Translations under genes and position numbers: made by a program
The notes under the pieces: generated by a model
What the model was told of the DNA's origin: nothing
The model's input: the letters and a program-made list of their open reading frames with translations, nothing else
The model's database searches: none
Part shown: positions 319 through 11,772 of the stretch, one piece after another
Layout of the letters: the number at the start of each line of letters is the position of its first letter
Position numbering within the stretch: the stretch's first letter is position 1
NCBI GenBank assembly: GCA_002269645.1
Contig: NIVC01004623.1
Location: forward strand, 1 to 40,340
Source: Macrostomum lignano
Taxonomy: Eukaryota
Reading direction: 5' to 3'
Length of the DNA stretch: 40,340 bases

Positions 319-349
319 ATCGTTCCTTCGGAACGCGGACTTCGTCGAT
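319..349 (+). other. Double-hairpin element A
   Basis: AT CGTTCC-TTC-GGAACG CG GAC-TTC-GTC GAT, between ATPase stop and penton start. Confidence 0.8.
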
Positions 350-366
350 TCTTTCCACTATAAAAT

Positions 367-1146
367 ATGGCTACAAATTTAGATACTATAAAACAATTTA
401 ATCGAAACTAATTCAAAATTTAGTACAACATTACAGTTTATAATGACAACCAGCGAGCAACGGATTCAATTGCGCGATCCATTTACAACTTGATCAAAGC
501 CTAAGTTATCAAATGGTTTTAATTATTTTCGGTTTTAACATGCCTCAATTAATTAATGCCCAACAAATAATCAATTTAGATATTCTAAAGATTCCGGAGC
601 CAATTGGACAACATTTAGCGTTAACCCAGGAGCGTATAGCCTATACTGATTTGAATGCTTATATAGAAGGAGAATTAACAACTAATGGTGATTGGGTAGC
701 AGGAGCAATTGTTATTAGGTTTGATTTACGTCTGGCCAGATTCACACTATCACTAGGATCGGATATCAGGTTGATTTCACAATTGCAAATTCACTCAGAA
801 CCATACTTGGATTTAATTCCCGAATAGTTACCACATCAAGCACCGGTGATACAGTGGAAATATTGAGGGGGAGTAATACAATTAATATAACAACCGACAT
901 ATCAAACGGTGGTTATATAACAGACGATAACGGAGTTTTGGTTCAACGTGGAATTATTTATTCAATCCCATTTCTTGCTGTTCCAATTGGAGAGAAAATG
1001 ATTGTTCACCTCAAACCCCAATATATTACCCATTAAATCAATATAATGTTCAATCAATTTATATTAGGATTGTAGATGAAAGCGATAGATTAATAAGTTT
1101 TGGTGGGCAATCAATAACAATAATTTTACGTATAAAACAGGTTTAA
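367..1146 (+). pseudogene. Minor capsid protein (penton, single jelly-roll), several frameshifts
   Basis: Joined frames give GYQVDFTIANSLRTILGFNSRIV...VEILRGSNTINITTDISNGGY...VPIGEKMIVHPQTPIYYPLNQYNVQSIYIRIVDESDRLISFGGQSITIILRIKQV*, the typical Polinton penton C-terminus. ATG at 367, TAA at 1144-1146. ORF-track pieces 513-827 and 854-1036 are fragments of it. Confidence 0.75.
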
Positions 1147-1159
1147 TCGTATAGTAAAA

Positions 1160-1339
1160 ATGGGTAATAATAATAATAATTTACTAAAAAAACAATCAGA
1201 AAAAGTTAAAAAAGCTGAAGATAATTACGAACTAGAACTAGCAAAATTAAGGCAGTTACAAGCTGATAAAATAAGAAAGGAATTGTTAAAACCCACACCT
1301 ACTAAACTAACTAAAACCAAGAGTTTTTCAGGAACATAA
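1160..1339 (+). CDS. Small basic 59-aa protein (MGNNNNNLLKKQSEK...), below ORF-track cutoff
   Basis: Clean ORF with AAAAATG start that fills the gap between penton and protease; stop lies 1 nt before the protease ATG. Confidence 0.5.
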   Translation: MGNNNNNLLKKQSEKVKKAEDNYELELAKLRQLQADKIRKELLKPTPTKLTKTKSFSGT

Positions 1340-1340
1340 A

Positions 1341-1790
1341 ATGACCATGACGTGGGATGATTTTAAACAAAGATATGGAACAGACACAACAAGCAATATC
1401 GAATTAACAAATTGGGCGAGGCAGTTAAAAATAAAACCATTCAGATGTGTTATGCGGGATGAGATAAAAGACTTACCAAGATATGGATGTTTCATTGTTA
1501 ATATTGAAACAACAAAAGAAAATGGTGTTCATTGGTCAGCAGTTTATTCAAAACCAAAACTTGTTTATTTTTTTGATTCATACGCGCTTCCTCCGTTACA
1601 GGAAATAAAAGATAAATTTAATCATACTAAAAATCGTTTATGTGGAGATCATCACGAACAGTTTCAAACATTTGATAAAAGTTATTGCGGGCAGGCTGCG
1701 TTATATTTTTTATATAAAATTAATAACTCGAAGGAAAGACCCGAAGACTTTAGGTATCATGCAAAGCATGCGTGCCGATGGCGATTTTAG
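1341..1790 (+). CDS. Adenain-family (Ulp1-like) cysteine maturation protease
   Basis: Catalytic set in order: GVHW (His), YFFDSY (Asp), QFQ (oxyanion Gln), SYCG (Cys). Confidence 0.9.
   Translation: MTMTWDDFKQRYGTDTTSNIELTNWARQLKIKPFRCVMRDEIKDLPRYGCFIVNIETTKENGVHWSAVYSKPKLVYFFDSYALPPLQEIKDKFNHTKNRLCGDHHEQFQTFDKSYCGQAALYFLYKINNSKERPEDFRYHAKHACRWRF
1756..1785 (+). other. Double-hairpin element B
   Basis: AT CATGC-AAA-GCATG CGT GCC-GAT-GGC GAT at the protease 3' end. Confidence 0.8.
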
Positions 1791-10068: not shown

Positions 10069-10152
10069 TTTATAGAATAAAATTTATATAATGTTTGAAT
10101 TATTGATTTTTTAATTTTGTGTTTTTGGTGTCCTGACCCACCCCCCAGGAGC

Positions 10153-11145
10153 CTATTCGAGATCTGCTTTTGGTAATAGCAATCCATTGCCCATAACGTT
10201 TGAATTTAAGAAAATTCCTGAACCTGCTTTTGGTCGCATTTCGAGATATAATCCGCTTCCGTCGTGTTTTTCAATGATATTAAAATCTTTTCCTAATTTA
10301 TTAAAAATTTTCTGAACAGCTGGTCTAAAATTGGATCCAATATTGTCAAAAAATCCTTTAGCTTTCTCACCCGTTTTTTCTAAAGTTTGACCAAATTCAT
10401 GTAGTTTATCTGCTACAACTCCACTTCCTTGGGTTGTTCCTTTTAGTACCAAACCATTCCCGTGATTTGTTCCTTGCAAGAGTAAACCTTTTCCGGCTGC
10501 TAACCTAGCTTCTGCATTTCTTTTTTGCTCTGCTGTTGCTGAACTACTATTAATGGTATCAATAAGTTTCTGTTTGAATTGTGCGTCCTGTGTTATTTGC
10601 TGTCTTTGAAATTCGGCCTCTCTTTTAGCTTTTTCGTCCGCAGCTTTTTTGTCATTTACTGCTTTTGCAATTCCAGCTGCTCCGCCAGCAACTCCTCCAG
10701 CTGCTCCAATTCCTGCAAAAATTATTGGGAGCAAAGCTGCAAGGGGTAAGATTCCCCCCTGTTTCGCTCTTAACTCTCCTAGCTGTTTTACATTATCATG
10801 AATTCTTTTTCCGGCTAAACCGACTGCTCCGGCTGCACCAAGTCCTAAAAGAAGCGGTAGAATGGGTAGTAATCCGCCGTCCTTTTTAGTGTGAGTCTCC
10901 ATTAAAAATTTCACATCGGAGTCTGTCAACCTATAATTTCTGCCGCGATTCTTAAAGGATATTGGCCTTCCTTCTTGTGCATATTTTGCTGCGAGTTTAA
11001 ATGTATCGATGTCGTAGTCAAACTTTTTACCTAATCGATCCAATCTTTTTAACATTGTGTGGCTATGTTTATTATCATCAAGATTTAAGGTATCTACAAT
11101 TTCTCCTATAAAATATAACCGGTTTTCATCATTAACTGAGTCCAT
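10153..11145 (-). CDS. Virion core/membrane precursor with two adenovirus pX-like hydrophobic segments and repeated GxG-hydrophobic putative cleavage sites
   Basis: GGLLPILPLLLGLGAAG and GGILPLAALLPIIFAGIGAAGGVAGGAAGIAKAVNDKK resemble adenovirus pX (GGILPLLIPLIAAAIGA) and a common Polinton gene; six GxG[LIV] motifs in the C-terminal part. Confidence 0.8.
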   Translation of the reverse strand: MDSVNDENRLYFIGEIVDTLNLDDNKHSHTMLKRLDRLGKKFDYDIDTFKLAAKYAQEGRPISFKNRGRNYRLTDSDVKFLMETHTKKDGGLLPILPLLLGLGAAGAVGLAGKRIHDNVKQLGELRAKQGGILPLAALLPIIFAGIGAAGGVAGGAAGIAKAVNDKKAADEKAKREAEFQRQQITQDAQFKQKLIDTINSSSATAEQKRNAEARLAAGKGLLLQGTNHGNGLVLKGTTQGSGVVADKLHEFGQTLEKTGEKAKGFFDNIGSNFRPAVQKIFNKLGKDFNIIEKHDGSGLYLEMRPKAGSGIFLNSNVMGNGLLLPKADLE

Positions 11146-11155
11146 TTTTATATTG

Positions 11156-11554
11156 TTAAAATTTCTTTAATCCTTTTCCACCTTTAATAGTATTTAACAT
11201 TTTATTAAAATCCTGAATATCTTTATTACTTATTGGTGCGCTTTTCGTGGGGGTTTCTGTTGGTTGTGCGGCTTGTGCCAGCTTTAAATCTTTTATTGCA
11301 TTTATTTGTGAGAGGGTGTCGTTAAAATCTCTCAATTTCTTTAGTTCTTCTGCCGCTCTAGCTGCTTCAATTCCTCCTTTTACAGCATTTGTTATAGAGC
11401 CTGCTGCAGAGCCAGCTTGCCCTATAAGCCCCATATTGTCTTTAACAAAATTTGCTGCTGTTCCAACCAAATCAAAAAGTCCCTCACCTCGGTATTCAAT
11501 TGGATCTCCTACCTGATACTCATTTATATTTTGCACATGTGTAACGTGTGTCAT
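11156..11554 (-). CDS. 132-aa precursor with amphipathic helix after RGEG (pVI-like membrane-active candidate); start likely ATG 11554
   Basis: MTHVTHV..YRGEGLFDLVGTAANFVKDNMGLIGQAGSAAG; AAAAAATG start context; C-terminal GGKGLKKF. Confidence 0.6.
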   Translation of the reverse strand: MTHVTHVQNINEYQVGDPIEYRGEGLFDLVGTAANFVKDNMGLIGQAGSAAGSITNAVKGGIEAARAAEELKKLRDFNDTLSQINAIKDLKLAQAAQPTETPTKSAPISNKDIQDFNKMLNTIKGGKGLKKF

Positions 11555-11716
11555 TTTTTGTTCTATTTTTAGTAACAGAAAAATTAAGTTGCAGACACTA
11601 AAGAAAAGGGTAGTGTGCAAGCATCTCGAGCGGTTTTATTTTATAGCTCTTTTTTTACTCTTTTTTGTATAGAAAATAAAGAAGACGCAAACACAAAAGA
11701 TTCTCTATCCAAAAAT

Positions 11717-11772
11717 GAACCTATGGTTCGCGGGCTGTGCCCAGTGGCACCATGGCCTGCTCCGTTGGAGCA
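11717..11772 (-). other. Double-hairpin element E plus an extra hairpin
   Basis: Minus strand AC TGGGC-ACA-GCCCG CGA ACC-ATA-GGT; adjacent TGCTCC-GTT-GGAGCA hairpin (11758-11772); downstream of the spliced gene. Confidence 0.65.

Follow-up and report, generated by a model that had tools for sequence, protein, structure and literature searches.

We analysed a 40,340-nucleotide (nt) stretch of Macrostomum lignano DNA (GCA_002269645.1, contig NIVC01004623.1; hereafter the window), in which a Polinton-like element occupies positions 1 to ~13404; only the right part of that element is included, the left end lying beyond the window edge. This element is punctuated by GC-rich islands of 26-28 nt, each composed of two abutting hairpins, and we put the probability at roughly two in three that the islands are copies of one non-autonomous, lineage-specific miniature mobile DNA element that has spread within the Polinton lineage. 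An earlier prediction made from the letters alone (the original prediction) had described five such islands, A to E, and a partial copy at 4811, and had offered two readings of them: a termination or 3'-processing signal, or a miniature mobile element like the double-hairpin elements (DHEs) of chytrid mitochondria. Its coordinates, stems and loops were all confirmed and all five islands are real, but its count was short, as a sixth full copy, G, had been overlooked.

The copies and the lone hairpins related to them are listed here; ORF denotes an open reading frame, aa amino acids and pPolB the protein-primed DNA polymerase B of the element.

321 to 347, plus strand: copy A, a 15-nt hairpin and one of the 13-nt type that lacks a base, flanked on each side by AT, immediately 3' of the stop codon at 317-319
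1758 to 1783, minus strand: copy B, at 26 nt lacking two bases, flanked on each side by AT, within the final codons of the protease ORF
4811 to 4843, minus strand: copy F, degenerate and nearest to E, in the convergent overlap of the 218-aa and 170-aa ORFs, holding the stop of the 170-aa ORF
6064 to 6091, plus strand: copy C, full 28 nt, in the convergent overlap of a 126-aa ORF and pPolB, with the pPolB stop within it
6783 to 6810, plus strand: copy G, full 28 nt, AT on both sides, read by alignment as a 10-residue in-frame insertion in pPolB soon after the catalytic DTDS motif
8787 to 8814, plus strand: copy D, full 28 nt, read by alignment as 10-11 residues inserted in frame into a loop of the exonuclease region of pPolB
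11716 to 11743, plus strand: copy E, full 28 nt, intergenic, 102 nt beyond the stop of a spliced gene and ~45 nt beyond a minus-strand AATAAA
11758 to 11772, no strand assigned: perfect 15-nt hairpin of this type standing alone, 14 nt from E, possibly a remnant or a tandem copy
13065 to 13079, no strand assigned: perfect 15-nt CG-closed hairpin standing alone, its loop reading GNA on the minus strand, situated just inside the terminal repeat region, possibly a remnant or a source

Placed in homologous register (G, E, D, C and A on the plus strand, B on the minus strand), the copies share a unit in which a 15-nt hairpin (CG, four pairs ending CC/GG, and a 3-nt loop) abuts a 13-nt hairpin (CG, three pairs and a 3-nt loop), for a total of 28 nt. 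Both hairpins are closed by CG/CG, and the unit is usually flanked by AT, giving 28+2 = 30 nt; 5 of 6 copies have AT next to the short hairpin and 3 of 6 have it at the opposite end. The paired hairpins and 3-nt loops agree with the original description, but the stems are longer than it proposed (6 and 5 bp when the outer CG pairs are included), the 'CG spacer' it placed between the hairpins is actually the base of a hairpin, and its alignment had matched the long hairpin of A with the short hairpin of the others. Full-length copies have 15-20 of 28 bases in common, and the GC content of D (68%) and G (57%) compares with 29% for pPolB and 33% for the element. The covariation that had been claimed for the stems holds, with two-sided changes in 6 of 11 pairs. 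Base pairing is kept in 93.7% of 63 cells, whereas slid control partners pair in at most 41%, and 0 of 500 letter shuffles reach the observed covariation score, although the pairing and covariation figures are inflated, the copies being related and the structure having been drawn from those same copies. Seventeen of the 24 CG positions are intact, 6 read TG or CA and 1 has lost a base, which suggests some decay.

The evidence that carries the mobile-element reading comes from genes with homologues. We measured the distance between fixed anchors on either side of G and D in 120 pPolB homologues. Of the 106 homologues spanning the G site, 99 have 25-26 residues there and the query 35; at the D site, 84 of 118 have 31 and the query 42. 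In a set of 266 homologues, rows at least 8 residues shorter than the query made up 235 of 249 at G and 231 of 252 at D, and relative to the nearest pPolB clade the query has gained 11 residues at D and 10 at G, the latter equal to 30 nt. No query-specific insertion of at least 10 residues other than D and G occurs between aa 330 and 1200 of pPolB; the protein has six further query-specific runs, all AT-rich and none a hairpin. D and G lie in loops of the predicted pPolB structure and keep its frame open. On this evidence, a conserved gene has acquired both D and G, each of them in frame. Copy B is probably an insertion as well, on similar comparative grounds: 13 protease homologues (40-70% identity) terminate in a helix, while at B the query protease ORF passes into element-encoded residues and the helix motif resumes downstream in another frame. 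Together with the ~30-nt AT-flanked unit, these three sites favour the miniature mobile element of the original prediction. For the 218-aa ORF that hosts F, a homologue search found 0 among 1166 candidates. A back-translation test for hairpin-compatible peptides, run on 214 of 279 proteins (242,620 residues), recovered D and G but was set aside as unspecific because it gave 90 matches in 63 proteins.

Quasi-palindrome correction, in which one arm of a hairpin templates the other, would keep stems perfect without selection, and two-sided changes would then arise in one step. Passive copying of the units by template switching or repair, without a dedicated enzyme, would require no mobiliser, and hairpin-driven slippage has been proposed for the repeats of Sissivirus (preprint). 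We nevertheless regard passive copying, and likewise a rare host repeat lodged in the integrated copy, as very improbable. Slippage yields tandem duplicates with shared flanks, and the Sissivirus hairpin repeats are indeed tandem, whereas the copies described here are dispersed, have unrelated flanks and keep a fixed size of 15+13; passive copying also leaves the loop rule described below unexplained. No such repeat occurs in 26.9 kb of host DNA.

The descriptor of the original prediction, run over positions 1-13406, gave 6 matches at 5 sites (E on both strands) against shuffle means of 0.12 (global) and 0.08 (200-nt blocks), with 0 of 150 shuffles reaching the count in either, and it had no match in the 26,934-nt host flank; the comparison with shuffled and host sequence that had been proposed as a check came out in its favour. 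Dropping the CG requirement raised the matches to 14 against 3.3 in shuffles (0 of 150 had as many) and brought copy G to light, and with spacers of 0-6 nt the excess fell to 23 against ~10 (1 of 150 and 0 of 150). These comparisons, made with dinucleotide shuffles, are optimistic because the descriptors were written from the copies; G is the sole copy not used in writing them, and by alignment it later proved to be an insertion. A covariance model returned from the window its six training copies and nothing further below E 0.7. It did not recover copy F at E<=10; F is the best other match of E, with 1 of 200 shuffles as good (6 queries tried). Neither the descriptor nor the covariance model found a copy in the host flank, and all 6 full copies fall in the viral third of the window (P 0.001). 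Lone 15-nt hairpins outside the copies number 2, against 0.04 in shuffles (0 of 200 had as many) and 0 in the host flank. The architecture, the covariation of the stems and the confinement to the viral part of the window are established by these observations. An assembly or chance artefact is scarcely credible: there are several frameshifts in the first 1.2 kb, so that the one or two bases missing from A and B may be errors, and the descriptors are post hoc, but 0 of 150-200 shuffles reach the counts, all copies differ, and D and G leave pPolB open.

Other candidates in the element were considered. A near-match at 1673-1698 was rejected as a copy, as it sits in a motif conserved among protease homologues. 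Rfam, searched over 1-14600, gave no family match and two chance hits (E 3 and 4.2), and a phage blastn search of 6000-9000 returned one chance 71-nt match. The GC island at 13044-13085, which holds the lone hairpin, has a non-significant minus-strand resemblance to copy D (85 of 200 shuffles) and may be a decayed copy with another hairpin nested inside. A further GC island, at 10119-10168 by the stop of the 330-aa ORF and just upstream of pPolB, forms a different hairpin and shares an 8-mer with the island at 13055.

The positions of the copies bear on the other reading of the original prediction, in which they terminate transcripts or direct 3'-processing, or act as upstream promoter elements. 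For 4 of the 7 copies a stop codon is no more than 25 nt away, against an expected 7.3% (P about 8e-4), and both convergent gene junctions carry a copy. E stands close beyond its AATAAA, and A and B end exactly 9 nt before TATAAAAT (349-359 and 1785-1795), an equal spacing that could reflect targeting. Against this reading, D and G lie deep in pPolB, 0.7-1.3 kb from any stop and within an open 1327-aa frame, and for 7 of the 14 gene ends the surrounding 110 nt hold no copy. The stop at C and at F is part of the element, and at B the element supplies or shifts the stop. The claim that A, B, D and E share one orientation relative to transcription fails once the copies are placed in register, where A runs counter to B, D, E and G; the short hairpins of A and G are the most alike, yet these two copies are oppositely oriented to transcription. 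Under the mimivirus/Sputnik hairpin rule, single A/T-rich stems of at least 13 bp with loops of at most 5 nt follow the stop codons of most genes (PMC8557863). The copies resemble these hairpins in lying near gene ends in a DNA virus, but their stems are paired, GC-rich and 5-6 bp, their orientation is mixed and two are mid-gene, so termination by this rule is poorly supported. The in-frame GT-AG intron of the spliced gene points to host Pol II, the user of AATAAA, and Rfam holds no matching family. We consider a transcription signal of any of these kinds improbable, while a regulatory role for individual copies retains some weight, and attribute the pattern of positions to insertions surviving only where they are tolerated. 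Two further readings, an adenovirus packaging A-repeat pattern and an attC-like cassette, were weighed by inspection and discarded, given that D and G are inside pPolB.

The loops follow a rule of their own. Read on one strand, 11 of 12 are purine-N-A (34% in a background of 1262 comparable hairpins from related loci; P 5e-5), 11 of 12 are closed by C-G (38%; P 2e-4), and 5 of 12 are GNA (13%; P 0.01), with 6 ANA and 1 other, P-values that overstate independence because the six copies are related. All four letters occur at the middle loop base. C-closed GNA loops form a stable DNA mini-hairpin whose RNA versions are much weaker (PMC3201870, PMC13037366), and ANA loops formed no mini-hairpins in the 64-loop test described in PMC13037366. 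The substrate is likely DNA, and no firmer than that, because 5 loops are GNA, 6 are ANA, and nearest-neighbour folding energies do not favour DNA over RNA. Strand-displacement replication is established for protein-primed polymerases. A DNA substrate is consistent with such replication and with a possible single-strand binding protein (SSB) gene in the element.

C-GNA-G mini-hairpins are also found in the priming sites of phage G4/ssiA and in N4 promoters (PMC13037366, PMC3201870), and their binding of SSB is poor (PMC13037366). The copies share their 3-nt loops and C-G closing, which lends some support to functional cis-signals on the displaced strand (for priming, pausing, SSB-free marks or packaging), original or exapted. 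A structure retained despite sequence divergence, the lone hairpin beside the terminus and the possible SSB gene would fit such signals too. We judge them distinctly unlikely all the same, as D and G are, by alignment, insertions into a conserved enzyme, the spacing of the copies is irregular and their orientation mixed, and the decay in several of them, with 6 of 24 CG positions TG or CA, is unrepaired. The copies also depart from C-GNA-G mini-hairpins in that half of their loops are ANA and in being tandem pairs that are dispersed and inserted in genes; the window showed no gene for a primase or an RNA polymerase.

Distribution counts against cis-signals as well. In 65 distant Polinton-like pPolB loci (470,010 nt, drawn from genome_contigs), neither the descriptor nor the covariance model found a copy: the descriptor gave 6 matches, all in two GC-rich loci (L030 and L064), and the covariance model a single match at E 7.7. 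As these loci are distant, the element is not general to Polintons, a conclusion that concerns distant loci and leaves close relatives aside. Many bacterial and archaeal metagenome-assembled genomes in that collection contain Polinton-like polymerase contigs, which are probably mis-binned eukaryotic virus DNA.

If the islands are mobile, the element would fold in the single strand displaced by protein-primed strand-displacement replication, taking the form of two stacked mini-hairpins, either a nicked dumbbell or, with the AT flanks, a T-junction. An enzyme would read this shape and the CG bases rather than the stem sequence, and would insert or copy the element at AT dinucleotides; with AT duplicated the net gain would be 30 nt, so that reading frames survive. 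Purifying selection would then retain insertions only in surface loops, last codons and intergenic DNA, which would produce the bias toward gene ends. Granting mobility, a junction-cutting nuclease acting with the polymerase could be the mobilising enzyme, and the endonuclease VII-like domain of pPolB, the sole junction-cutting candidate in the window, is a tentative choice for it; otherwise it could be an integrase (outside the part seen) or a host enzyme. Polinton polymerases with nuclease insertions have been described before (PMC10748475, PMC11161782). The complete proposal, a selfish 28-nt element recognised by shape on the displaced strand and mobilised by a Polinton replication enzyme through this domain, is unlikely to be right in every part. 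We had also considered the pPolB N-terminus as an HUH domain binding T-shaped hairpins and dropped it, since HUH appears in neither of the two papers examined for it and the region is described as terminal protein and vOTU in PMC11161782; a single-sequence structure model of that region was unusable (pLDDT 42).

Several observations weigh against a mobile element, beside the clustering at stops and convergent junctions and the relatedness of the copies behind the pairing and loop statistics. Recent movement is not in evidence, since no pair of copies comes close to identity, and AT flanks both sides of only 3 of 6 copies (P 0.02). Model confidence is low at the D and G inserts, as expected where the alignment is gapped; D lies within a length-variable loop, both sites are naturally variable, and at the G site the homologue P0025 carries an unrelated 11-residue insertion, which marks that site as tolerant. 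The nearest pPolB homologues retrieved are ~50% identical. With regard to mechanism, 6 of the 11 purine-N-A loops are ANA, the class that failed the mini-hairpin test, and DNA and RNA are not told apart by folding energies. Homologues without D and G commonly have the endonuclease VII-like domain too, and no transposase was identified among the window proteins, the one PHROG transposase match being weak (E 0.044) and to the zinc-finger start of the 170-aa ORF, an ORF that received no assignment.

The stem-loops of mitochondrial DHEs were reportedly found by Paquin et al. in 2000 to be kept by compensatory change. DHEs of Allomyces and other chytrids and of Schizosaccharomyces are, like the copies, short, GC-rich, made of two stem-loops and dispersed in an AT-rich genome, and they too occupy intergenic and tolerant genic sites and are presumed mobile by an unknown mobiliser (PMC10085805, PMC2800124). 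The Polinton copies show the same GC-rich, adjacent and covarying stem-loops, and D and G are absent from distant homologues. Unlike DHEs, they reside in a host-integrated Polinton-like element rather than an organelle, have a fixed 15+13 size, CG at all four stem bases and loops of the mini-hairpin type, and in 2 of 6 cases lie in frame within a protein gene. Fission-yeast DHEs include identical copies, whereas the Polinton family has none, and Allomyces DHEs are reported without flanking duplications (PMC2800124), compared with AT on both sides of 3 of 6 copies here. The GC42 clusters of yeast mitochondria are likewise miniature, GC-rich, palindromic and constrained in structure, with a putative 2-nt target duplication of AG where the Polinton copies have AT (PMC4478555). 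GC42 copies are near-identical and vary mainly in loops, whereas the Polinton copies agree at the 15-20 bases given above and vary in their stems by compensatory change; GC42 mobility is shown by presence or absence in populations, whereas mobility of the Polinton copies is a proposal built on comparison with distant homologues. By analogy, the family may work like DHEs and GC clusters. We do not class it with DHEs, because it is non-mitochondrial, its copies are not near-identical and DHEs were compared by description only. Rickettsia palindromic elements are also palindromic repeats that lie in frame in protein surface loops, but they are bacterial, about five times longer and conserved in sequence. 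A literature search that reached few subscription papers found no report of double-hairpin elements in Polintons, and no such hairpin elements are described in PMC8502044, PMC10748475, PMC11161782 or 10.1101/2023.10.16.562556.

The Polinton-like element that carries the copies has a GC content of 33%, against 47% in the remaining window, and encodes pPolB, a protease-like ORF, a 682-aa fibre-like ORF, several small ORFs and a spliced gene. The protein-primed PolB by which Polintons/Mavericks are recognised is present; no rve integrase or major capsid protein was found among the window ORFs, the element extending past the left edge. Closest named pPolB homologues come from Mytilus edulis, and an exact look-up of 10 window proteins found 0 of 10 in the protein collection.

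1341 to 1790, plus strand: protease-like ORF, putatively adenain, with a C-terminal helix probably broken by copy B; no Pfam match
5371 to 5703, plus strand: 110-aa ORF with an acidic tail, score 0.90 to a cluster with PF17427 in 44% of its members; as a lead only, possibly a phi29-type SSB
6085 to 10068, minus strand: pPolB, 1327 aa
8410 to 8598, minus strand: endonuclease VII-like domain in pPolB, aa 491-553 (Pfam PF02945, E 2e-6; PHROGs)
13094 to 13404: right end of the element, with terminal ACTACT at ~13404 and an inverted inner copy of the terminal ~85 nt from ~13094
359, 1795 and 3889, plus strand, and 10074, 11152 and 11645, minus strand: sites of the TATAAAAT or TAAAAAT motif
1155, 4193, 5366, 11571 and 12686: related motifs

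Terminal inverted repeats of Polintons/Mavericks begin AGTAGT, and the right end, the one end within the window, agrees with such a terminus. The terminal 310 bp (13094-13404) are flanked by imperfect inverted repeats of ~85 nt, each beginning AGTAGTAGG; because there is no target duplication around it, this segment looks like a compound terminus and not a separate insertion. The spliced gene (12681-11845, minus strand; intron 12392-12321) consists of two exons joined in frame, 254 codons in all, with AATAAA at 11789. The 330-aa ORF at 10153-11145 has a weak adenovirus protein X match (PF05829, E 0.01). The first two genes (1-1146), presumably ATPase-like and minor-capsid-like, had no database match; they are frameshifted several times, through decay or assembly error, while pPolB and the fibre-like ORF are open. 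TATAAAAT or TAAAAAT stands ahead of most ORFs, often leading directly into ATG. This arrangement recalls poxvirus-type late promoters; the element nevertheless has a spliceosomal intron.

Beyond the element, the window consists of host DNA, in which retroelements, microsatellites and ankyrin genes occur. Two retroelements were noted, one at 15832-18090 (minus strand) with a reverse transcriptase and RNase H ORF and one at 24740-26656 (plus strand) with a Penelope-like reverse transcriptase and GIY-YIG ORF. An inverted-repeat pair at ~13755-13800 and 14435-14495 encloses ~740 bp of host DNA and resembles a miniature inverted-repeat transposable element (MITE).

Most descriptions of DHEs and GC clusters come from organelle genomes, and their mode of movement is unsettled (PMC4478555, PMC2800124). 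Finding such a family in a compact Polinton reduces the possible enzymes to a few proteins and suggests displaced single-stranded DNA as the substrate. If the copies are mobile, Polintons host parasites far below the size of MITEs, which add peptide loops to the polymerase and rewrite the C-termini of proteins. If the proposed mechanism were also true, the element would be a minimal parasite of a virus-like element, able to enter virus genes without a frame shift, and would offer a small system for identifying the mobiliser of double-hairpin-type elements in vitro.

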